DNA of 12,465 nt from an uncultured Deinococcales bacterium (lineage in GTDB: Bacteria > Deinococcota > Deinococci > Deinococcales > JAAFIG01): contig CAXTKV010000161.1 in the NCBI GenBank assembly GCA_964244895.1, positions 1 through 12,465 of the forward strand, read 5' to 3'. Shown here piece by piece: positions 1 to 12,107 of the stretch; position 1 is the stretch's first letter, and every line of letters starts with the position of its first letter. Position numbers and translations under genes: made by a program. The notes under the pieces were generated by a model that did no database searches, had not been told where the DNA came from, and was given only the letters and a program-made list of their open reading frames with translations.

Positions 1-21
1 GAGGATCGGATGCCGGTGTGA
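1..21 (+). CDS. Possible 3' end of an upstream gene (tnsC/tniB expected from context; only 6 codons visible, EDRMPV*)
   Basis: Frame 1 is open from base 1 to TGA at 19-21. That stop overlaps the tniQ GTG start as GTGA, the same 4-nt coupling used by the next two junctions. Identity is inferred from position only. Confidence 0.35.
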   Translation, partial: EDRMPV

Positions 22-977
22 AAGCCGTTAGCCACACTTCGCTTGACACGCCCGAGCTGTTTGAGTCATGGATCATGCGGCTGGGTCAAGCAAACATGAT
101 TCCAACGCCTCGGCTGGTCGAAGTATTGCAGCTTCGTCACGCGTTGTCGTCCTCGAATCATGTTTCTGCAGACGCTTTCCAACTACTCTCGAGTGTGACA
201 GGCGTATCGGATGTCCGAATCCGCGAGTCTCACCTGACGACTTTCAGTCGATACACGGAGTCCGTTTACAATGTCAAGTATGTCATTCCCGCCCGTACCC
301 AAGCTAAGTATTCAATTCCTTTTAAACCTTGCCCTCGCTGTCTAAACGAGTCAGATCGACCATATATTCGTCTGCATTGGGCGCTGGATCTCAGCTGCTT
401 TTGCGCCGTTCATCATTCGGTCCTGCTGGCCCGGTGTGTCAAATGCGGCAGTTTCTTTTCTCTCAAAGTGACCGAACCTGAGATTCCAATCCACCAATGC
501 CGCAAGTGTGGGTTCGATCTGCGCAACATCACCCCACGCGCTACGCCAGGGTTCGCAGAAGCCATCACTTTCCAAACGCGCCTCCTCGAGATGAAGCGAG
601 ACGCTGTCGTCAATTGGCCTGGAATTCGCTTGAAGGAACCCGCTGCGTTCGCTCAGATCGTTCAACGCCTCTTCCGAGCGCTTTGTGACACTCCGAGCCA
701 TCACGCACTCAGCGAGTTTACAGAGGAGTCATTCCGCTCGAACGTCCATCTGTTGGACGACCGATTCTCCTTTGAAATCAGAAGAACCAATGCGCTTTCC
801 ATGACAGCTTGGTTCCTGAGTAAACCAAGCTCGCATTGGGCAGCGCTCGGCCCACATCTCAGGCGGAATCTTCCATTGGAAGTGAGCGACAGGATCGCGG
901 TGGCCATGTGGCACGCTTTCAACGCTGCAGCAGCTTCAGTCGGTGTGCTCGAGCGGTCGAACGCGCTGACCTCGTGA
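18..977 (+). CDS. tniQ: TniQ family target-selector protein (319 aa)
   Basis: N-terminal PELFESWIMRLGQAN matches the TniQ E-x-x-SW-x-x-RL-x-x-x-N pattern. The Zn-finger cluster CPRCL...PYIRLHW...CAVH...LLARCVKCG...CRKCGFDL is characteristic of TniQ/TnsD. The length fits TniQ rather than a long TnsD. Confidence 0.9.
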   Translation: MKAVSHTSLDTPELFESWIMRLGQANMIPTPRLVEVLQLRHALSSSNHVSADAFQLLSSVTGVSDVRIRESHLTTFSRYTESVYNVKYVIPARTQAKYSIPFKPCPRCLNESDRPYIRLHWALDLSCFCAVHHSVLLARCVKCGSFFSLKVTEPEIPIHQCRKCGFDLRNITPRATPGFAEAITFQTRLLEMKRDAVVNWPGIRLKEPAAFAQIVQRLFRALCDTPSHHALSEFTEESFRSNVHLLDDRFSFEIRRTNALSMTAWFLSKPSSHWAALGPHLRRNLPLEVSDRIAVAMWHAFNAAAASVGVLERSNALTS

Positions 978-3688
978 AGCAGTTCGGACTCGAAGTTTGG
1001 GGCGATTTTGCGTGTTTCTCTCGGCCCGAATTGAAAGTCGAGCGTTACACATATCCGGTCATCACGCCGAGCGCCGCTCGCGCCATCTTCGACGCGATTT
1101 ACCTCAACTTTGATGGCGGTACGCCAAATCGCCCCACCTTTCGCTGGCAGGTAAGACGCATCGAGGTGGTCGAACCCGTGCACTACATTGCGCTGTCCCA
1201 GAACGAGGTCAAAGGGAAAATCCACACTGACAAAGTAGCGCTGTGGATGACGCACTCGGAGCAAATCGAACCTTTGATCGCCGACGCACGAGGCAAAGGA
1301 ACGGAAGAGTACGGTCGGACCCAGCGCCAAACGATTGGCCTGCGACGGGTGCGCTACCGGTTGTTCGCCGAGGCGGTGCTGTACGAGGAGAATCACACCC
1401 TGAGGCAGCTCATCGAAAAGATCTTCGCGCGACGCGCCCGCGCCGGCCAGTGCTACCACCAGCCGTGCCTCGGGCAACGCGAGTTCGGAGCGTACTTCGA
1501 GCTGGTCGAGACGCAAAGTGGACGCTGCGCCGCCGTCAACGAGGACATCGGCTGGATGGTCTACGACGTGTTCGACCTGTCCCGACCGGGTTCGAGTTCG
1601 GACCCGTGGAGTATCAGCACATTTCGCGCCCACGTCCGGGATGGCGTACTCGAGGTTCCACCGTACTCAAGCGAGGACGTCCACAAGTCAGGTTTGGCGC
1701 AATCGTTGCGCGAGCGTGGAAGTCCCCAAGTCGGGTCTGGCGCAACTGGGATGTTCGAAGCGCTCGTCGAGTACGCTCGGCGTACGGGGCTGGCGACCGA
1801 ACCGGGGTTCAGCGAGAAGGTCGTCCGCTGGATAGCGAACGTGAATCTTGATGGGGTGATCACGTCGGTCGCCCCTGCTGATCCCCTCAAAGGCCGTGCG
1901 GTCGTGTTCGCGTGCTGCCCAGATTTGCAACTCCCCGCGATCAAGGCGCTACCGGCGGCGCTCGGGAGGATGGAAAATGGGATCGCCGTTAAGCAAGGTG
2001 CGCACTTCCTCGCGGACACGTGCAGCACGGTTGGTCTGTTCCCGAACGGGTTGGACAGCAATCACAAAATCCTCGACAAGCACCGAGTTTTCACCCATCT
2101 AATCGAGCGGGCGAGTTGGATCATTCCCGAACTTCGACCAATTCATAGCGCACTGTCTGAGGCGAGTTTCCTCGTTCAGATACACGCCATGTTAATCGGG
2201 TGCGGGGCGAAACCAACGGATCGCCTGTCGTTCTCAGTCGATGGAGTTCCGGTGCCCGACATGAACGTCTGGCATTCTTGGTGGCGGGCATTCCGTGAAG
2301 AGGCATCCCCACGCAAACTGGAACGCAACATGGTGTGCCTCGCCACGGGAGAACGCGTCGTTCCAGCGAGAACGCATCCAAGACTCACCTCGCTGGGCGT
2401 GGGCGCTTCGAGTGTTGGAGCCAGCCTGATCGCCTCTGGCAAAGAAGCGTTCAGCTCGTCGAGCTTCCGTCAGGGTGAAAACAGCGCGCTCTCGGAGGAC
2501 GCCGCTTCGGCCTACACATCCGCGCTCGATCACCTGTTGCGCAGAGCGCCCGTCATCGACGGAACAAAAGTTGTTCACTGGTACAGCACCGATACGTCGA
2601 CGAGCCTCGATCCGCTCGCGCTGCTGTTTCAGCCCAGCGAAGTGCGCGAACTCGAAAATTTTTCATCTCGAACGTCCCTCACCAGCAGCGAAATTCGCGC
2701 GTTCGCCGACTGGCCCGGTTTACCCAATGCGCAATACCACGTCATGGTCGTGCGAGGCGCGAAGGCGCGCGCCCGCGTCAGGTTTTTTGCCTCTGGCACA
2801 CAGGAGCAGGCGGTGGCGGCGGTGAGCGCATGGTTCGCTGATTTAGAGGTCTGCACCATCTCTGGCGACGGCTCAACGAGCGCAACGCCCGCCAAACTCT
2901 TGGCGTCCATCAAGAAACCCATTGACAACGACAACGCGGAGGGGAACCGGAACAAGACCTTGCATTCCCTGCACGTTCGGCTCTGGCAGACTGCCCTTGA
3001 CCCGGCGGTTCCGGTGCCGATCTCGGTCGCGAACGACATCTTGACAACTCTCTACCGCAGTCTGGCGAATCGAGACTTCCAGAAAGCCGTGGCGTACACG
3101 CCCGCAACGTGGAATTCCACGTTGCGAGACACGTTACACGCTTGCATGGGGGGCCTCAAGGGGTATCTCGTCCGCGCTGGCGACCACGACATCACTGTCA
3201 ATCTGAACCCAAACCACCCGAGCGCGAATTATCAATCCGGTCGCTTGGCGGCGCTTCTTCATCGGATCGAGGAAATCGCTAACTCAAACCCGAGCAGTAA
3301 CAGTCACCAGGTATTTGCAGCGTCCATCGCAGGATTGATCGAAAGGCTTGATCGGCAGACGCGAACCGTCAAACGCAGCTTGGATTGGATCGCTGCCGCA
3401 CGTCCGTGGTTGGCCTTGGCGCTCGAATCGTATCTCGAGCGCATCTGGGAAAGCCTCGGCAGTGCTGTGCCCAGAAACAACAGTCCCAAAGCTCGAAGCC
3501 TCTTCATCCTCGGGTACTACCAGCAGCTCGCGTTCAACAATTCGAAACGTACCGCCAATCCAGCAGCTGAGTTCGATCTCGAAGACGGGGACGACACGAA
3601 TGAGGAAATGGATGACCTGTTTGAAACTATCGCAGACCAATCGGGGATGTCAGTCCAAAGTGATGACAACAAGGAGAGACACGAATGA
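974..3688 (+). CDS. cas5c-cas8c: Fused type I-C Cas5c (Cas5d) - Cas8c (Csd1) protein, about 904 aa from GTG 974
   Basis: The N-terminal part has Cas5c motifs (LEVWGDFACFSRPELKVERYTYPVITPSAARAIFDAIY, GQCYHQPCLGQREF). After a G/S-rich linker, MFEALVEYARR at 1751 begins Cas8c, with MVCLATGE...ARTHP, GASLI, YQSGRLAALL and FILGYYQQ motifs. No stop lies between the two parts. GTG 974 overlaps the tniQ stop (GTGA), so it is preferred over the ORF-track start at 836. Confidence 0.9.
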   Translation: MKQFGLEVWGDFACFSRPELKVERYTYPVITPSAARAIFDAIYLNFDGGTPNRPTFRWQVRRIEVVEPVHYIALSQNEVKGKIHTDKVALWMTHSEQIEPLIADARGKGTEEYGRTQRQTIGLRRVRYRLFAEAVLYEENHTLRQLIEKIFARRARAGQCYHQPCLGQREFGAYFELVETQSGRCAAVNEDIGWMVYDVFDLSRPGSSSDPWSISTFRAHVRDGVLEVPPYSSEDVHKSGLAQSLRERGSPQVGSGATGMFEALVEYARRTGLATEPGFSEKVVRWIANVNLDGVITSVAPADPLKGRAVVFACCPDLQLPAIKALPAALGRMENGIAVKQGAHFLADTCSTVGLFPNGLDSNHKILDKHRVFTHLIERASWIIPELRPIHSALSEASFLVQIHAMLIGCGAKPTDRLSFSVDGVPVPDMNVWHSWWRAFREEASPRKLERNMVCLATGERVVPARTHPRLTSLGVGASSVGASLIASGKEAFSSSSFRQGENSALSEDAASAYTSALDHLLRRAPVIDGTKVVHWYSTDTSTSLDPLALLFQPSEVRELENFSSRTSLTSSEIRAFADWPGLPNAQYHVMVVRGAKARARVRFFASGTQEQAVAAVSAWFADLEVCTISGDGSTSATPAKLLASIKKPIDNDNAEGNRNKTLHSLHVRLWQTALDPAVPVPISVANDILTTLYRSLANRDFQKAVAYTPATWNSTLRDTLHACMGGLKGYLVRAGDHDITVNLNPNHPSANYQSGRLAALLHRIEEIANSNPSSNSHQVFAASIAGLIERLDRQTRTVKRSLDWIAAARPWLALALESYLERIWESLGSAVPRNNSPKARSLFILGYYQQLAFNNSKRTANPAAEFDLEDGDDTNEEMDDLFETIADQSGMSVQSDDNKERHE

Positions 3689-4725
3689 ATCCGATCCAGA
3701 ACCGATACGAATTTCTAATCATTTTCGACTGCGAAAATGGCAACCCAAATGGCGACCCCGACGCTGGGGATCTGCCCCGTATGGACATTGAGGACGGGCA
3801 CGGTCAAGTCTCATCTGGATCAATCAAGCGACGAATTCGCGATTACGCTCACCTGCTCGGAGAAGCCATCCTCATTCAACGCTCGAGCAACATCAACAAA
3901 TCGATTTTTGAGGCTCGCGAGCAAACCGGCGATCCAAACGCCACTCCCACCATCAAACGTACGCAGGACGCCACCGCCTGGCTCTGCGAGAAGTTTTTCG
4001 ATGTGAGAACCTTCGGTGCAGTGCTGAGCACCGGCGCGAACGCGGGTCAAGTCACCGGCTCCGTGCAAATCAACTGGGCCAGAAGCATCGATCCCGTCCA
4101 CGTGATAGAAGCCACCATCACCCGAGTCGCTGTCACGGACAAGGCCGATGGAGCCAATTCCGTCGCGGACTTTGAAGATTGGGAGGCTGGGGAGGCCAGC
4201 GGTAGACTTCAGACGATGGGCCGCAAAAGCTTCATTCCCTACGGACTTTTTGTGGCCCCTGGCTTTGTGAGCGCGTTCCAGGCCCAGAGAACGGGCTTCT
4301 CGGAAGGCGATCTTGAGATTCTCTGCGAGGCCATCATGAATATGTTTGAACACAGCCGAACGTCGAGCAAAGGCATGATGTCAACCCGTCGGCTGATCGT
4401 ATTCAAACATTTGGGAACGAGAAAAGACCCTGAGCAGCAGGCACAGCAAGCCAAACTGGGCTGTGCACCTGCCCATAGGCTGCTCACGCTAGGACAAGTG
4501 GTCAGGATCCTTCGCCAAGATAAAACGCGACCGCCGAGAACCTACGCTGACTATACGGTGTCAGTGGATCAGAGCCAACTTCCAGTAGGCGTAGCCATGC
4601 TCGACCTCACCGTTTGGGATGCCGACGAGTTCCACAATGGATGGGTAGTGAAGCGCGAATCTCCAGTAGAGCCCGAAATCCGCAGAGGTTCGCGGAACAA
4701 GAGGACACCGTCAGGAACGAAATAA
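3685..4725 (+). CDS. cas7c: Type I-C Cascade backbone Cas7c (Csd2), 346 aa
   Basis: Motifs NRYEFLIIFDCENGNPNGDPDAGDLPRMD, IKRRIRDY, FFDVRTFGAV, TMGRKSFIPYGLF, AQRTGFSEGDL, MFEHSRTSSKG and LGCAPAHRL are typical of Csd2. There is an AAGGAG RBS and an ATGA overlap with the cas8c stop. Confidence 0.96.
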   Translation: MNPIQNRYEFLIIFDCENGNPNGDPDAGDLPRMDIEDGHGQVSSGSIKRRIRDYAHLLGEAILIQRSSNINKSIFEAREQTGDPNATPTIKRTQDATAWLCEKFFDVRTFGAVLSTGANAGQVTGSVQINWARSIDPVHVIEATITRVAVTDKADGANSVADFEDWEAGEASGRLQTMGRKSFIPYGLFVAPGFVSAFQAQRTGFSEGDLEILCEAIMNMFEHSRTSSKGMMSTRRLIVFKHLGTRKDPEQQAQQAKLGCAPAHRLLTLGQVVRILRQDKTRPPRTYADYTVSVDQSQLPVGVAMLDLTVWDADEFHNGWVVKRESPVEPEIRRGSRNKRTPSGTK

Positions 4726-4820
4726 ACTGGATTTTGACGAGTACGACGTGGCCCTTCATTAGCCAATAATTCGGAGTCCGCGTTTCAAGGTCGAAGAAAC
4801 TCGTGCTTTACACATTGGAG

Positions 4821-4826
4821 TATGAT
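4821..4826 (+). promoter_or_regulatory. Possible -10 element (TATGAT) for the CRISPR array
   Basis: TATGAT lies 4 nt before repeat 1, in the 105-bp gap between cas7 and the array. No convincing -35 was seen. Confidence 0.3.
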
Positions 4827-4830
4827 CGCT

Positions 4831-5078
4831 GTCTTCACGGCTTTATCGCCGTCGAGATGATTGAAACAACCCGCAACTCGCCGGACCGGCCATCGGTTCG
4901 ACCGCAGACCGTCTCCACGGCTTTATCGCCGTCGAGATGATTGAAACTGCTGCGAGGTCAGCAGCACCGTCCAGCCTGCGCCGAGTCTCCACGGCTTTAT
5001 CGCCATCGAGATGATTGAAACCGCAGCGAACTCGCGCTCTACCGGGGCTCCGAGCGTCTCCACGGCTTTATCGCCGTC
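4831..5078 (+). CRISPR. Mini CRISPR array: three full 37-bp repeats, one truncated terminal repeat, three spacers (43, 37, 34 bp)
   Basis: Consensus GTCTCCACGGCTTTATCGCCGTCGAGATGATTGAAAC at 4831-4867 (one change), 4911-4947 and 4985-5021 (one change), with a 23-nt partial copy at 5056-5078. The repeat has an ACGGC/GCCGT hairpin and a 3' ATTGAAAC handle. Spacers are 4868-4910, 4948-4984 and 5022-5055. Confidence 0.95.
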
Positions 5079-5249
5079 TATACGACTGGCCCCCGCTGAA
5101 ATCATCGCGCTGACGGCAGGTCTCAAAGTCTTCATAAGGTTTTGATTATCAGTCGAAAATTTACTGGGCATTTGTCGAAATTGGATCAAGATTCCAATCG
5201 TTCTGTTGGATGTATGCTCTTCTCGTTTAAAACGCTCAATCCATTGAGC

Positions 5250-5309
5250 GCCTCTACAACCCTTGGTTGTCGAGATGATTGAAACCACCGACAGATCATC
5301 GAAGGCGTG
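5250..5309 (+). CRISPR. Delocalised atypical repeat (5250-5285) plus putative homing spacer (5286 to about 5309)
   Basis: GCCTCTACAACCCTTGGTTGTCGAGATGATTGAAAC shares its last 17 nt with the array repeat and keeps the hairpin as ACAAC/GTTGT. The following CACCGACAGATCATCGAAGGCGTG matches minus-strand 5617-5594 at 17/24 positions, next to TTC. Confidence 0.85.
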
Positions 5310-5400
5310 TTTTTATGGATACCCAGATCTTGCATCTTCCAAAAAGCACAAAAGCTAAACCGCAGAATTGTTAAACGTTTCAAAACTAACCATGATTTAT

Positions 5401-5550
5401 TGCTGACGTGGCTAACGATAAAATCCTTTAGGTTCACGAATCAAATTGACGTATAGAACGGAGATGTTTACGATTCCCAAGATTACTGACGTGGCAAACG
5501 ATACTGACACGTCAAACGATCATTGCTGACATTTTAAACGAAAAGCCACA
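5401..5550. repeat. Transposon end: five TnsB-binding-site-like direct repeats and terminal ACA (5'-TGTGGCTT on the minus strand)
   Basis: The motif CTGAC-N5-AAACGA occurs at about 5403 (ctgacgtggctaacga), 5446 (ttgacgtatagaacgg, degenerate), 5486 (ctgacgtggcaaacga), 5504 (ctgacacgtcaaacga) and 5526 (ctgacattttaaacga). The last copy is about 9 bp from terminal ACA at 5550. This fits Tn7-family TGT...ACA end architecture. Confidence 0.85.
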
Positions 5551-5555
5551 CGATG
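5551..5555 (+). other. Predicted 5-bp target-site duplication (CGATG)
   Basis: These are the five bases right after the terminal ACA, and Tn7-family elements make 5-bp TSDs. The second copy cannot be seen in this window. Confidence 0.45.
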
Positions 5556-5569
5556 CCTGACTCAGCACC

Positions 5570-6421
5570 TCAACCCTTGACGCCCGTCAGAACGACACCC
5601 TCGATGATCTGCTTCTGGAAGATCACGAACACCGCCAGCACGGGAATCACGGCCAAACTGGAAGCCGCCATGATCAACTGCCATTGCGAGCCCGTCTCGC
5701 CGCTGAAACGCGCGATGCCGAGCGGCAAGGTGAACAGGTCAGCGCTGGTCGTGACGATCAACGGCCACAGGAACGCGTTGTAATTACCCAGGAACGTGAA
5801 GATCGCCAGCGCCGCCAGCGCGGGCCGCACGAGCGGCAGGCCGATCTTTGAAAACAAGCCGAATTCGGAGAGTCCATCCAGGCGCGCGGCATCGAAGAGC
5901 TCGTCCGGGATGCCCTCGAAGAAACCCCGCATCAAAAAGACGCCGAAAGCCGAAATCAATCCCGGCAGGGCGATCGCCAGATACGAATTGTTGATGCCGA
6001 GCTTGATCGCGCCGACGTACCACGGGATGACCAGCATTTCCGTGGGGATCATCAGCGTTGAGAGGATCACGACGAAAATGATTTCCTTGCCGGGGAATTT
6101 CATTTTGGCCAGCGTGTAGCCGACCAGCGAATCGAAGAACAGCACGCTGGCGGTCGTGGCCGCCGCGACCCCGATGGAGTTCAGGAACCAGCGCGGGAAT
6201 TCGGTTCTGGACAGGATTTCAACGTAGTTGCCGAGCGTCGGCACGGCCCGCGCGGGCCAGATGCCGGGTTGCAGCGCGTCCGCGTAGCTTTTCAGGCTGG
6301 TCAACAGCATCCACACGAACGGGAAGGCCGTGACGATGCTGCCCGCGATCAAGAGCGCGTAGACCCACCACGGCCCATCGCGCCGTTTTTCTCGAGGTTG
6401 CTTCATCGCACCCGCCGCCAT
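5570..6421 (-). CDS. Carbohydrate ABC transporter permease (MalG/UgpE-like), 283 aa
   Basis: Multiple TM helices, PFVWMLLTSLK, the EAA-loop variant IPDELFDAARLDGLSEF, NYNAFLWPLIV and C-terminal FQKQIIEGV. Start is 6421 or the ATG five codons later. Confidence 0.95.
   Translation of the reverse strand: MAAGAMKQPREKRRDGPWWVYALLIAGSIVTAFPFVWMLLTSLKSYADALQPGIWPARAVPTLGNYVEILSRTEFPRWFLNSIGVAAATTASVLFFDSLVGYTLAKMKFPGKEIIFVVILSTLMIPTEMLVIPWYVGAIKLGINNSYLAIALPGLISAFGVFLMRGFFEGIPDELFDAARLDGLSEFGLFSKIGLPLVRPALAALAIFTFLGNYNAFLWPLIVTTSADLFTLPLGIARFSGETGSQWQLIMAASSLAVIPVLAVFVIFQKQIIEGVVLTGVKG
5594..5620 (-). other. Putative protospacer (5617 to 5594) with 5' TTC PAM (5620-5618) inside the 3' end of the permease gene
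   Basis: The minus strand reads TTC|CAGAAGCAGATCATCGAGGGTGTC versus spacer CACCGACAGATCATCGAAGGCGTG. TTC is the established type I-C PAM and is exactly in register with spacer position 1. Confidence 0.75.
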
Positions 6422-6449
6422 CCGCTCACCCGCCTCTCGAGCGAGAGAA

Positions 6450-6493
6450 CACCGTCCTGGACGCGGTACTCGAACACTGCGTCCAGGACGGTG
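6450..6493. repeat. REP-like palindrome copy A
   Basis: Perfect 15-bp arms CACCGTCCTGGACGC (6450-6464) and GCGTCCAGGACGGTG (6479-6493), between the two permease genes. Confidence 0.75.
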
Positions 6494-6504
6494 GTCTCGC
6501 CCTT

Positions 6505-7921: not shown

Positions 7922-8866
7922 ATGAAAAAGGCTTTGATTCTGACGGCGGCATTCTTTCTTTCGGCCTGCAATACCACGCCAGTGACGGGTTCAGACGCGG
8001 TTCTGGCGGTGCAAAGTGCTCCCGGTCATACCGGGGTTGGACCATCCGGTTGGATCATGGCGGGCGCTGGTGATTTTGATGGCGATGGCAAAACCGATGA
8101 TCTGGTCTGGCGGAACTACAAATCCGGGCAAAACGTCGTCTGGTTGATGGAAGGCTCGAGCATCGTCGGTTCAGGCTGGCTGCCCAGTGCGACGCTGGAT
8201 TGGGTGATCGGGGCGGTGGGCGACATGGACGGCGATGGTCGCCGCGATGACATCGTCTGGCGCAACCGCAGCAATTTCTCAAACGCGATCTGGTTCATGG
8301 ACGGCTACACCATCACCAGTGCGACAGGCTTCACCGACGGCTCCACGCTCGGTCACTTCAACAACGGTGTGCGCGACGACCCCGAAGGGCCAGGCTGGGA
8401 AATCAAAGGGGCGGGCGATTTCAACGGCGATGGTTACGGCGATGTGCTTTGGCGTCACGGCCCACACGGCGAAAACGCCATCTGGTACATGAGGGGCGCC
8501 ACCTTCTTAGGGGCAGCCGCGTTGCCACGAACCACTGATCCACAATGGGACATCGTGGGCGTGGGAGACATGAACGGTGACGGTCAAAGCGATATCGTCT
8601 GGCAGCACTGGCCCCAGCCCATCCCTGGAACCCCAAAAATAGATCGGGTCAACAGCATCTGGTTCATGAATGGTTCCTCGGTGACGAGCTACAGCCTCGC
8701 CGCGTCCGCAGGAGATCCGGGCTGGGTCATTCAGACGATCGGGGAAAACAATGGCGATGGCAAAGGGGACATGTACTGGCGCTATGACCCAACGGGCGAT
8801 TGCGTGTACTGGAACATGAACGGCACGACACCCATAAGCGGCGCGTACTTTGCTACAGTTTTCTGA
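7922..8866 (+). CDS. Lipoprotein with FG-GAP/VCBS-like repeats (probable Ca-binding beta-propeller), 314 aa
   Basis: Signal peptide and lipobox MKKALILTAAFFLSA-C. Five repeats of W-x-I-x-G-x-G-D-F/M-D/N-G-D-G-x-x-D-I/L-V-W-R followed by N-x-I/V-W-x-M-x-G. A G-rich RBS (CAGGGGG) precedes the start. Confidence 0.9.
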   Translation: MKKALILTAAFFLSACNTTPVTGSDAVLAVQSAPGHTGVGPSGWIMAGAGDFDGDGKTDDLVWRNYKSGQNVVWLMEGSSIVGSGWLPSATLDWVIGAVGDMDGDGRRDDIVWRNRSNFSNAIWFMDGYTITSATGFTDGSTLGHFNNGVRDDPEGPGWEIKGAGDFNGDGYGDVLWRHGPHGENAIWYMRGATFLGAAALPRTTDPQWDIVGVGDMNGDGQSDIVWQHWPQPIPGTPKIDRVNSIWFMNGSSVTSYSLAASAGDPGWVIQTIGENNGDGKGDMYWRYDPTGDCVYWNMNGTTPISGAYFATVF

Positions 8867-10643: not shown

Positions 10644-12101
10644 TCAGTTCTGCGCCGTCTTCTGCGTCTCCACCCGCGACCCCAGAACGCGGTTGGCGAT
10701 GACTTCAATCGCGCCCTCGGCGGCCCGATCCAGGCTCTCGCCGTCGATGATCGGCACGCCGACGGTCTTGGCCATCTGCTCGACGTAATTTTGCAACTCG
10801 CGAATGGACGCGAAATGATCCAGGTAGCGCTTCATCGGGCGGTGCTGGCTGGTTTCGGCATCGCGCAAGTAAAAGCGCTTGCGGTGCTCTTCCTCGTTGC
10901 GCACCATCACCACCATCGGCACGACGATGGCGTCTTTGAAGGCCTCTATGGGCAAGAATCCGGGCACGATGTGGACGCCTTCGAGCACCATCGACGTGTG
11001 TTCGTCGCTGCCGCGCTCGATGATCGCGCGCAACCCGACGCTGACCTGCTGCACCTGATCGCGGAAGCCGTCGAGGAGTTGATCGGGCGTGGGCTTGATG
11101 TCCGTGCCCTTGAGTTGCGCCAGCTCGTGCGGGTGCAGGGTCGTCATCCACGCATCGAAGCTCGAGGCGTGCAGGGTCGGGATCAGATCCTTGCTGACCA
11201 TCGCGCGCATGACCTGACGCACGCTGTCGGTCGATTCAATTCGGGTGATGCCCAGCCGGTACGCGACCTCTGCGGCCAGCACGCTTTTGCCCGTGCCAGT
11301 CACGCCGCCGATCAGGATGTGCAAGGGCTTGTCCGGGCGACGCACGCTGCGCAGCAGTTCATAGCGTCGCGCCACGTCCTCGCCGAACTCGAGGTGCAGG
11401 ATCGCGTTGACCTTCTCGCGCAAGCTCTCGCGCGGGATGAACGGTTCGGCGTCCGCGAAGAGCTTCATCTCGACCTCGCGCGCCACGCGGTGCGCATCGT
11501 TCGGCGAGAGTCCTGTGGCCATCAAAGATTGCGCCAGGATGCCCTTCGAGTACGGGAACGAAACCCCGTTGTCCTCCAGCACGTTGACCTGCGCCGCGCG
11601 GCGGTAGCGCTCCAGGTACGCGTCCTTGGCCTCGCGCCCGAAACGCCGTTCGACCTCGGCCAGCACGCGCTGTTCCAGGCCGCCGCGTTCAATTCTGGTG
11701 ATGCCCTGAATCCGCAAGGTGCGCTCGATGTCCTTTGAGAGTTCGTAGGCGTCACGGATCGGCAAGCCCGCCAGTTCGAGCGACCTTGAGAGGATGCCCT
11801 TCGAGAACGGAATCCGCGCGTCCCCATCGATCACCACGACATCCTCGAAGGCTGGCGTCTGCGCCTCGAGCCGATCCGCGACCGCATCGCCCAGCACCGT
11901 GCGGGTCTCTTGGGCCACGAAGATCTTGAGCGTGCCCGGATCGACCACGCGGCGGTTCTCGTCGAGCAGACGCTGTTCCACGCGGCGCGCAATGGCGATG
12001 GCGGGCTCTCGTTCGATGTCTGCGTTCAGCAAGGATTCCACGACCAGACCCTTCGAAAAGGGCCAGGCGTGATCACCGCTGGCGACGGAAATTTCCCGCA
12101 T
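10644..12101 (-). CDS. ATP-cone-repeat / 2-phosphoglycerate-kinase-like P-loop protein, about 485 aa
   Basis: Three N-terminal ATP-cone-like repeats (PFSKGLVVESL, PFSKGILSRSL, PYSKGILAQSL), Walker A ILIGGVTGTGKS, and STDSVRQVMR, LHASSF and LEGVHIVPG typical of the 2-PGK family. ATG 12101 was chosen because TAGACT lies 6 nt upstream; GTG 12107 is the alternative. Confidence 0.88.
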   Translation of the reverse strand: MREISVASGDHAWPFSKGLVVESLLNADIEREPAIAIARRVEQRLLDENRRVVDPGTLKIFVAQETRTVLGDAVADRLEAQTPAFEDVVVIDGDARIPFSKGILSRSLELAGLPIRDAYELSKDIERTLRIQGITRIERGGLEQRVLAEVERRFGREAKDAYLERYRRAAQVNVLEDNGVSFPYSKGILAQSLMATGLSPNDAHRVAREVEMKLFADAEPFIPRESLREKVNAILHLEFGEDVARRYELLRSVRRPDKPLHILIGGVTGTGKSVLAAEVAYRLGITRIESTDSVRQVMRAMVSKDLIPTLHASSFDAWMTTLHPHELAQLKGTDIKPTPDQLLDGFRDQVQQVSVGLRAIIERGSDEHTSMVLEGVHIVPGFLPIEAFKDAIVVPMVVMVRNEEEHRKRFYLRDAETSQHRPMKRYLDHFASIRELQNYVEQMAKTVGVPIIDGESLDRAAEGAIEVIANRVLGSRVETQKTAQN

Positions 12102-12107
12102 GCGCAC

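Follow-up and report, generated by a model that had tools for sequence, protein, structure and literature searches.

The window, the whole analysed stretch of 12,465 nucleotides, is an entire contig (C161) of a Deinococcota assembly (5.12 Mb in 328 contigs) and carries that part of a type I-C CRISPR-associated Tn7-like transposon (CAST) in which the cas genes and the array lie; very probably the element finds its insertion site through a homing guide of its own. The guide is encoded in a small repeat-plus-guide unit outside the CRISPR array and matches the last codons of the sugar-ABC permease gene next to which the element ends. Based on sequence comparison, RNA-guided homing of this element appears well supported: the second transposon end and the duplicated target site were found on another contig, three related elements share the same geometry of guide, target and transposon end, mismatches between guides and targets are concentrated at every sixth position, and the guide fits permease orthologues of other Deinococcota better than the one beside it. 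Features of the window are collected in Table 1.

Table 1. Features of the window in the neighbourhood of the array-side transposon end
Feature	Position	Strand	Remarks
Contig-start stretch	1..56		~52-57 bp common to five contig ends: C161, C225, C115, both C187 ends
tniQ, short form, 5' end missing/replaced	57..977	+	Pfam TniQ E=2.6e-12
cas5c-cas8c, single-frame fusion, 904 aa	974..3688	+	Pfam Cas_Cas5d, Cas_Csd1
cas7 (Csd2, type I-C)	3685..4725	+	Pfam Cas_Cas7 E=9e-82; NCBIfam TIGR02589 over cut-off
Short CRISPR array	4831..5092	+	37-nt repeats at 4831, 4911, 4985; degenerate fourth at 5056
Atypical repeat	5249..5285	+	diverged array-repeat copy; handle GAUGAUUGAAAC unchanged
Homing guide CACCGACAGATCATCGAAGGCGTG	5286..5309	+	24 nt right after atypical repeat
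Array-side transposon end	5399..5550		four transposase-binding-type repeats, terminal ...GCCACA
Target-site duplication CGATG	5551..5555		second copy C202:8394-8398, just ahead of other end TGTGGC...
CUT1-family ABC permease gene (UgpE/GlcU/MalG-like), intact, 283 aa	5570..6421	-	stop 5570-5572
Protospacer CAGAAGCAGATCATCGAGGGTGTC, codons Q K Q I I E G V	5594..5617	-	17/24 match
PAM TTC = Phe codon	5618..5620	-	directly 5' of match

The tniQ, cas5-cas8c and cas7 genes are contiguous, and the effector set recognized with Pfam and NCBIfam profiles, Cas5c, Cas8c (Csd1) and Cas7 (Csd2) with no Cas6, is that of type I-C. In the fusion protein, the Cas5c model of NCBIfam scores over its cut-off, while Cas8c with 137.9 bits stays under the NCBIfam cut-off and passes that of Pfam; in all three relatives described below cas5 and cas8c are two overlapping genes rather than a fused one. 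The short TniQ of the window can be aligned with those of the relatives (~320 aa) at 29-38% identity. The stretch preceding it probably represents one tip of an insertion present in several copies, by which the first ~17 codons of the gene were cut off. Because tniQ starts within this repeated stretch, right at the edge of the contig, the gene is probably interrupted, in which case this copy of the element may have lost its mobility. Third-position GC is 0.59-0.70 in the genes of the element versus 0.85 in the permease genes, so the codon composition of the element looks foreign.

Spacers of the array are 43, 37 and 34 nt long, and its repeat is predicted to fold into a 10-bp hairpin followed by UGAUUGAAAC. 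The spacers had no matches in plasmid and phage collections, and those obtained in the host genome were short and at chance level. Between the array and the end repeats there is an AT-rich stretch. The end repeats themselves (5399-5420, 5482-5503, 5502-5519 and 5522-5543) have spacings of 82-83 and 40, which recur in the relatives. The permease gene beyond them is the last one of a minus-strand CUT1-family sugar-ABC operon.

The opposite side of the element was located on other contigs. At C202:8399 there starts a sequence that agrees at 18 of 24 positions with the tip of the element in the window, taken in inverted orientation, and a TnsA-type gene follows it; the CGATG immediately before this end is the same as the five bases after the end in the window. 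C202 contains the tns-side end and the start of a tnsA-tnsB fusion (the TnsA domain), and C198 contains the C-terminal part of TnsAB (Mu-transposase C domain), a TniB-like TnsC and then cargo. TnsAB and TnsC of C198 are 45-51% identical to the 850-866-aa TnsAB fusion and TnsC of the relatives. The element is spread over C202, C198 and the window, and ~1 kb of tnsAB plus some cargo are absent from the assembly. It displays the hallmarks of Tn7-like transposons, namely, TnsA/TnsB together with a TnsC/TniB ATPase, TGT.../...ACA ends, internal repeats and a 5-bp duplication. As far as it is assembled, it has neither cas3 nor cas1/cas2, as is the case for CASTs; cas3 and cas1 are present in the assembly only on C36, in a separate canonical type I-C locus. 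The cargo on C198 includes a caspase-STAND-WD40 gene.

One more contig, C327, which carries the end of tnsA and the start of tnsB, was considered as a part of the element and rejected, because its TnsA domain overlaps that of C202 without being similar to it. C198 is the true continuation, and C327 belongs to a different Tn7-like element. A search for the empty site, made with the left flank (C202:7400-8398), did not recover it: among the 18 genomes of the host's family the flank had a match in just one, the nearest closed genome, where it lies 3.2 Mb from the permease orthologue. Two soil sequencing runs (6% of sampled words) yielded coverage only of an ~88% alike permease from position 5570 on, and none of the element.

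The guide unit is located 157 nt past the last degenerate repeat of the array and has an atypical repeat on its upstream side only. The hairpin of this repeat is retained through changed base pairs, the inner stem in the predicted folds being ACAACC/GGUUGU versus CGGC/GCCG, and the handle, ...GATGATTGAAAC at 5269-5285, directly precedes the guide. Neither a repeat nor a clear hairpin was detected 3' of the guide; there is a T-run after it, and pairing with the target fades beyond approximately position 24. A promoter/terminator scan of positions 4600-5700 revealed no terminator and no convincing promoter, and an Rfam search over the same region returned nothing useful. When the units of all four elements are aligned, weak conservation of a TTGA...TAnnnT stretch is seen ahead of the atypical repeat. 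Repeats with a hairpin plus handle and a TTC-type PAM typify type I-C systems, and these elements have the repeat hairpin, the ...AUUGAAAC handle and a PAM that is TTC in two of them and CTC in the other two. The DNA of the guide itself is flanked by AAC, not YTC, and thus the guide locus is not a target.

An earlier note on this DNA, made from the sequence alone, had described a 17/24 match of the guide with an 11-nt identical run at positions 7-17 and a TTC in register, had placed the end of the element 67 bp from the PAM and 19 bp beyond the stop codon of an intact permease gene, and had proposed RNA-guided insertion behind the permease codons. Recomputation reproduced the match in all these details. 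The coordinates of the transposon end (5550) and of the stop codon bear out the two distances, that from the PAM being ~67-68 bp. The permease is encoded by a whole open reading frame, with its tail kept as in nine orthologues, and the proposal itself is supported by the computations reported here. Read in the frame of the target, the guide encodes H R Q I I E G V. Since the PAM is a Phe codon, each sixth guide position corresponds to a codon third position. Guide positions 3, 4 and 5, within the seed, are mismatched at the target, and seed mismatches normally weaken Cascade binding badly.

To collect related elements, we searched 364 genomes of the phylum for TniQ. Relatives with the short TniQ were found in three genomes only, all of them in the host's family. 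One of these relatives is identical to the sole TniQ-bearing locus among the 15 Cas8c loci of a genome collection. Each relative has tniQ, cas5, cas8c, cas7, an array of 2-4 repeats, and an atypical repeat with a guide. The guide unit is placed differently in each of them: G138 has it on the opposite strand, close to the end, G129 has it behind the array, and in G130 it precedes tniQ. The best flank match of each of the four guides lies on the strand that reads towards its element, with the PAM 66-70 bp from the array-side end. The targets of the relatives are tRNA-Leu in G138 (PAM TTC, 67 bp to the end), tRNA-Met in G129 (CTC, 70 bp) and tRNA-Arg in G130 (CTC, 66 bp), as compared to the permease for the window element (G000). 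Second-best flank matches in the four elements reach 12-13/24. In the case of G130 the protospacer was first predicted from the 66-70-bp rule, and only then was the guide found through the repeat handle; it matched the predicted site. All four elements are flanked by 5-bp duplications, CGATG in the window and ACAAA, CCTAT and TTGGT in the three relatives. The earlier note had asked whether homologous elements would sit at the same distance downstream of orthologous permeases. The distance is indeed shared by all four, but the relatives reside at tRNA genes, and permease targeting is confined to the window element among the four members of the family.

The distribution of mismatches between guides and targets is far from even. 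Over guide positions 1-20 the four elements have 18 mismatches in total, ten of which fall at positions 6, 12 and 18; mismatched are 10 of the 12 cells at these positions versus 8 of the 68 elsewhere (Fisher p=1.4e-6). This is the pattern expected if selection keeps the paired positions while the flipped ones drift. In type I-C complexes themselves every sixth base of the guide is flipped out. For type I complexes in general, the accessible text of a preprint describes the same arrangement and states that pairing is not required at the flipped bases (Petassi et al. 2020).

Outside the phylum genomes, a metagenome scan with the TniQ alignment produced 218 pattern matches, none of which was confirmed, and a scan with the Cas8c alignment produced 65 loci, none with a TniQ detectable by a profile of the four TniQs. 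As no TniQ is present at these 65 metagenomic loci and at 14 of the 15 Cas8c loci in the genome collection, they appear to be ordinary defence systems.

Selection of the permease site by a protein might be considered instead of guide-directed homing. TniQ alone, or an unseen TnsD-like factor, would then recognize the permease end, and the guide would be a bystander or a relic. Such a factor could be encoded in the part of the element that is absent from the assembly, the host does have two longer TniQ-family genes (on C191 and C102), and the seed mismatches count against efficient RNA guidance at the window site. However, C191 (TniB and a 470-aa TniQ) and C102 were rejected as sources of a second selector, both being separate elements: their TniQ-family genes adjoin TniB/transposase genes of their own, and the TniB of C191 is merely 21% identical to the TnsC of this family. 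Moreover, the G129 element is complete (48.8 kb) and has a single TniQ gene (320 aa) and no TnsD-like second selector. Its left end was not convincingly found within 10 kb upstream of tniQ and was located 43 kb upstream, with ~40 kb of cargo between tnsC and tniQ. A protein selector also leaves unexplained why four guides match the flanks of their elements with the same geometry and with mismatches at sixth positions. Taken together, we consider it quite unlikely that the site is chosen by a protein.

The seven differences between guide and target raise the question of where a guide of this sequence fits best. We searched for TTC followed by the guide with at most three mismatches, and found matches, with 2-3 mismatches, in 44 of the other 363 phylum genomes, and none with the pattern reversed as a control. 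No matches came from the 18 genomes of the host's family, while two other families contributed 8 of 68 and 35 of 128 genomes. In the best-fitting genomes only guide positions 3 and 6 are mismatched. All nine inspected matches correspond to the same codons of the permease orthologue (63-67% protein identity), 48 nt before the end of the stop codon. Permease orthologues are present in 17 of the 18 genomes of the host's family. The arginine form of the site occurs in two of these, both members of a sister genus: one with mismatches at positions 3, 6, 18 and 24 and PAM TTC, the other with mismatches at positions 3, 6 and 24 and PAM TTT. The lysine form of the host is common to seven genomes from two other genera of the family. 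From this distribution we infer that the guide took its shape in other Deinococcota hosts, on the arginine form of the site (FQRQIIEGV). The direction of transfer would have been from such hosts: the element would have reached the present one horizontally, landing at the best available (lysine) site despite the seven mismatches.

Alternatively, the insertion may be old, the pair of guide and target having once been well matched and the seven differences having accumulated later, so that no tolerance of mismatches could be deduced from the present pair. Signs of decay in the element, namely, the interrupted-looking tniQ and the degenerate last repeat of the array, would be in line with considerable age. 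Against this, orthologues from the two other genera also have the lysine codon and agree with the host at the remaining third positions that differ from the guide, which indicates that the host form of the site is itself old. In addition, the codon composition of the element has not drifted towards that of the host, and the paired positions of the guide fit the arginine form found in the 44 other genomes. These observations make an old, formerly well-matched insertion very unlikely and favour transfer of an element whose guide had already been shaped elsewhere.

It is also conceivable that the guide serves regulation rather than homing, with Cascade bound at the end of the permease gene altering expression of the transporter operon. 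The target does lie within a gene, and nuclease-free Cascade is able to block transcription. However, a block within the last 16 codons would have little effect, and the guides of the relatives target tRNA genes at an equal distance from the transposon end, which fits the choice of an insertion site. Regulation is, in our view, highly improbable.

Guide-directed homing further presumes that the match itself is not accidental. At least 17 of the 24 guide positions are matched at 134 places on both strands of the assembly, target included (119 with 17, 13 with 18, one with 19, and the guide itself with 24). At the resulting rate of 1.3e-5 per position, ~0.003 matches are expected in a 150-bp flank, both strands counted, and the next-best match in that flank reaches only 12/24. 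There are four TTC-flanked sites with at least 17/24 in the assembly, and a run of at least 11 occurs only at the permease site. Among the tails of 32 permease paralogues of the host, the adjacent one alone reaches 17/24 with a TTC. A scan of the host genome for better TTC-flanked matches, suggested in the earlier note, brought up none that surpasses the permease site. Chance likeness of a spacer-like stretch to the neighbouring gene, to which the 133 other places reaching 17/24 or more might lend some colour, is hardly credible in view of the low expectation in the flank, the same peptide motif encoded by the guide, the same orthologue codons matched in 44 genomes as opposed to none for the reversed guide, and the geometry repeated in three relatives.

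Based on the anatomy of the elements and on knowledge of type I-F3 and V-K CASTs, the following mechanism may be envisaged. The guide unit, atypical repeat and guide, would be transcribed on its own. Cas5c would cut the transcript behind the hairpin, so that the guide, pairing over ~20-24 nt, keeps the ...AUUGAAAC handle. Cas5, Cas8c and Cas7 together with TniQ would then bind a YTC-flanked site within the last 16 codons of the permease gene, a step that would depend on the guide RNA and would have to tolerate the seed mismatches. TnsC and TnsAB would insert the element with the array-side end leading, ~65 bp past the PAM, producing the 5-bp duplication and leaving the permease gene whole. The array of the host's canonical type I-C locus on C36 has the same handle as the element, so the two systems might share guides. 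One may speculate that the chromosome is shielded from Cas3 either by the atypical repeat or by the mismatches in the seed.

A more far-reaching reading may be considered, though we regard it as less likely than not. Type I-C CASTs may be an RNA-guided transposition system in their own right, very compact and unusual in three respects. First, homing might be driven by a free-standing repeat-plus-guide gene with no 3' repeat, used by a shortened Cascade that pairs in four 6-nt segments and leads to insertion ~65 bp from a YTC PAM. Second, attachment sites might be changed simply by swapping the unit, the sites so far being tRNA-Leu, tRNA-Met, tRNA-Arg and, in the window, the first protein-coding one, the permease. 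Third, seed mismatches might be tolerated by the transposon complex and not by the Cas3-armed type I-C system of the host, which uses the same repeat handle; the mismatches would then allow the element to exist beside that system without self-destruction.

Type I-C CASTs are the least understood class of CASTs, and their earlier descriptions, in the accessible texts, include no array, homing spacer or attachment site. The window and its three relatives supply the parts that had been missing: both ends with the 5-bp duplication flanking them, the guide unit, the PAM with its spacing to the end, and an attachment site for each of the four elements. With these parts the system can be rebuilt and tested. 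It is also small: besides the TnsAB fusion it needs TnsC (~270-300 aa), TniQ (~320 aa) and three cas genes, which are two in the window owing to the cas5-cas8c fusion, and no Cas6. A system of this size is of interest for programmable DNA insertion. Finally, the family offers a natural case of attachment-site switching through guide replacement.

Nine putative type I-C CASTs were previously reported from metagenomes in a preprint (Rybarski et al. 2021), as restated later (Hu et al. 2024). According to the accessible text, those systems likewise combine Tn7-like genes and TniQ with Cas5, Cas7 and Cas8c and are devoid of cas3 and cas1/cas2. They are described there as having tniQ next to tnsABC and no CRISPR array, self-targeting spacer or recognizable attachment site. 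By contrast, and with the comparison being one of descriptions, the elements analysed here possess a homing guide, ends that could be defined and arrays with 2-4 repeats, and in the complete G129 element ~40 kb of cargo separates tnsC from tniQ. The main texts of two surveys (Benler et al. 2021; Faure et al. 2023) and of a 2024 review from the Peters laboratory contain neither 'I-C' nor 'permease'. A full-text search of the openly accessible literature found no ABC-permease attachment site for Tn7-like elements, in agreement with the earlier note, which knew of no such site. Within the accessible literature, the arrangement deduced here from sequence would be the first time that a homing design has been worked out for type I-C CASTs, and the permease would be a new attachment site.

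Type I-F3 CASTs, as far as they are covered by the accessible text of the corresponding preprint (Petassi et al. 2020), are similar in being Tn7-like, in having tniQ beside the genes of a nuclease-free Cascade and in commonly showing mismatches at host sites. The logic of their homing guides is also alike: an atypical repeat, a target at a conserved gene end and a register in which sixth positions coincide with wobble positions. Compared with that description, the effector in the present family is of type I-C (Cas5c, Cas8c and Cas7c without Cas6), and the guide unit is detached from the array, may lie on one strand or the other, in one element even precedes tniQ, and has no downstream repeat, whereas the homing spacer of I-F3 systems has atypical repeats on both sides and lies within or at the end of the array. 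Complementarity in the present family extends over just ~20-24 nt, and the PAM is TTC or CTC. The transposon end lies 66-70 bp from the PAM, as opposed to ~48 bp in I-F3, where the distance is counted from the far edge of a protospacer of 32 nt (Petassi et al. 2020, accessible text). Again relative to the I-F3 systems as described there, the target-side end of the present elements is the one far from the tns genes, and the attachment site of the window element is a sugar-ABC permease gene.

With type V-K CASTs, the family shares a short guide apart from the array and, in the three relatives, tRNA targets. Delocalized, truncated repeat-spacer units of V-K systems reportedly home to tRNA genes. 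ShCAST inserts 60-66 bp from its PAM, which is similar to the distance in the present family. However, V-K systems rely on a single Cas12k and a tracrRNA, whereas here there are only type I-C cas genes, which encode a multi-subunit Cascade, and TnsA is present, fused to TnsB; the resemblance is restricted to the layout of the guide.

Known homing sites of Tn7 and CASTs include tRNA genes, ffs, yciA, guaC, rsmJ, glmS, parE and comM. The end of glmS is recognized in Tn7 by TnsD, a DNA-binding protein. The window element resembles this pathway in that a conserved 3' coding sequence is recognized, insertion takes place shortly after the stop codon and 5 bp are duplicated, but the part played by a DNA-binding protein in Tn7 would here be taken by a guide RNA.

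TnsA and TnsB form a single fused protein of ~850-866 aa in the family to which the transposon belongs, and this fusion is followed by a short TniB-like TnsC of 268-300 aa. The cargo of the host element and of the element in G129, a relative from the same Deinococcota family, looks like conflict or defence genes. The internal tRNA-Arg(CCT) gene in the element of a second relative, G130, and the target tRNA in that element's flank share 88% identity across 100 bp, 18 bp of which lie upstream. Xre-type genes adjoining CAST arrays, as the one in the element of a third relative, G138, does, are mentioned in the preprint of Rybarski et al. 2021.

Features of the transposon, of related elements and of the neighbouring host DNA (C, other contigs of the host assembly, G000; L, loci extracted for analysis)
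Feature	Location	Remarks
cas5c-cas8c	window 974-3688	single uninterrupted 904-aa frame
Three array spacers	window 4868-5055	lengths 43, 37 and 34 nt
FG-GAP repeat protein gene	window 7922-8866	strand opposite to ABC transporter genes
2-phosphoglycerate kinase gene	window 10644-12107	NCBIfam equivalog above cut-off; ATP-cone domain
Separate canonical type I-C system	C36, about 23700-32156	cas3, cas5, cas8c, cas7, cas1
TnsA-TnsB fusion / TnsC region, host	C202 8650-9243 and C198 9416-8553	
TnsA-TnsB fusion / TnsC region	L165 3313-5862; L167 2717-5314; L168 7046-9592 (minus strand)	
Host cargo	C198 2-2860	caspase-nSTAND1-WD40 gene
G129 cargo	L165 8654-15327	GTPase-associated system (GAP1-N1, DO-GTPase1/2, GASH) and SIR2-EAD1 gene
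Second tRNA-Arg(CCT) gene	L043 367-443 (G130 contig C136)	G130 element, between array and end repeats
IS4/IS5-type transposase gene	L043 851-1651	G130 element, between cas7 and array
Small Xre-type helix-turn-helix gene	L001 5391-5672	G138 element, immediately after array

The three array spacers are far richer in GC than the remaining non-coding DNA of the element; no targets were found for them in plasmid and phage collections, and in the host only short, chance-level matches were seen. The host also encodes a type I-C system of its own on C36, with cas7 at 39% identity and an array whose 37-nt repeat ends in a handle (...GGATTGAAAC) identical to that of the transposon's repeats. Because both sets of repeats have this handle in common, their sequences make guide sharing or self-targeting conflicts between the host system and the transposon conceivable.

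Hairpin-forming REP-like repeats are present at about 6440-6500 of the window and at 8257-8312 of C202, the contig bearing the tns-side transposon end; the latter copy has about 30 look-alikes across the host assembly. Farther along the window, the FG-GAP gene separates the two permease genes of the ABC transporter from its substrate-binding protein gene.

At the contig edge, window positions 1-56 stand in place of the first ~17 codons of tniQ. These ~52-57 bp are common to five contig ends of the host assembly (the start of the window, both the start and the end of C187, the start of C225 and the end of C115), which diverge beyond them, and appear to be the outer end of a multi-copy insertion sequence with an unassembled body.

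The cas5c-cas8c frame either is a genuine fusion or results from a frameshift introduced in sequencing or assembly. In all three relatives, by contrast, cas5c and cas8c are two overlapping genes.
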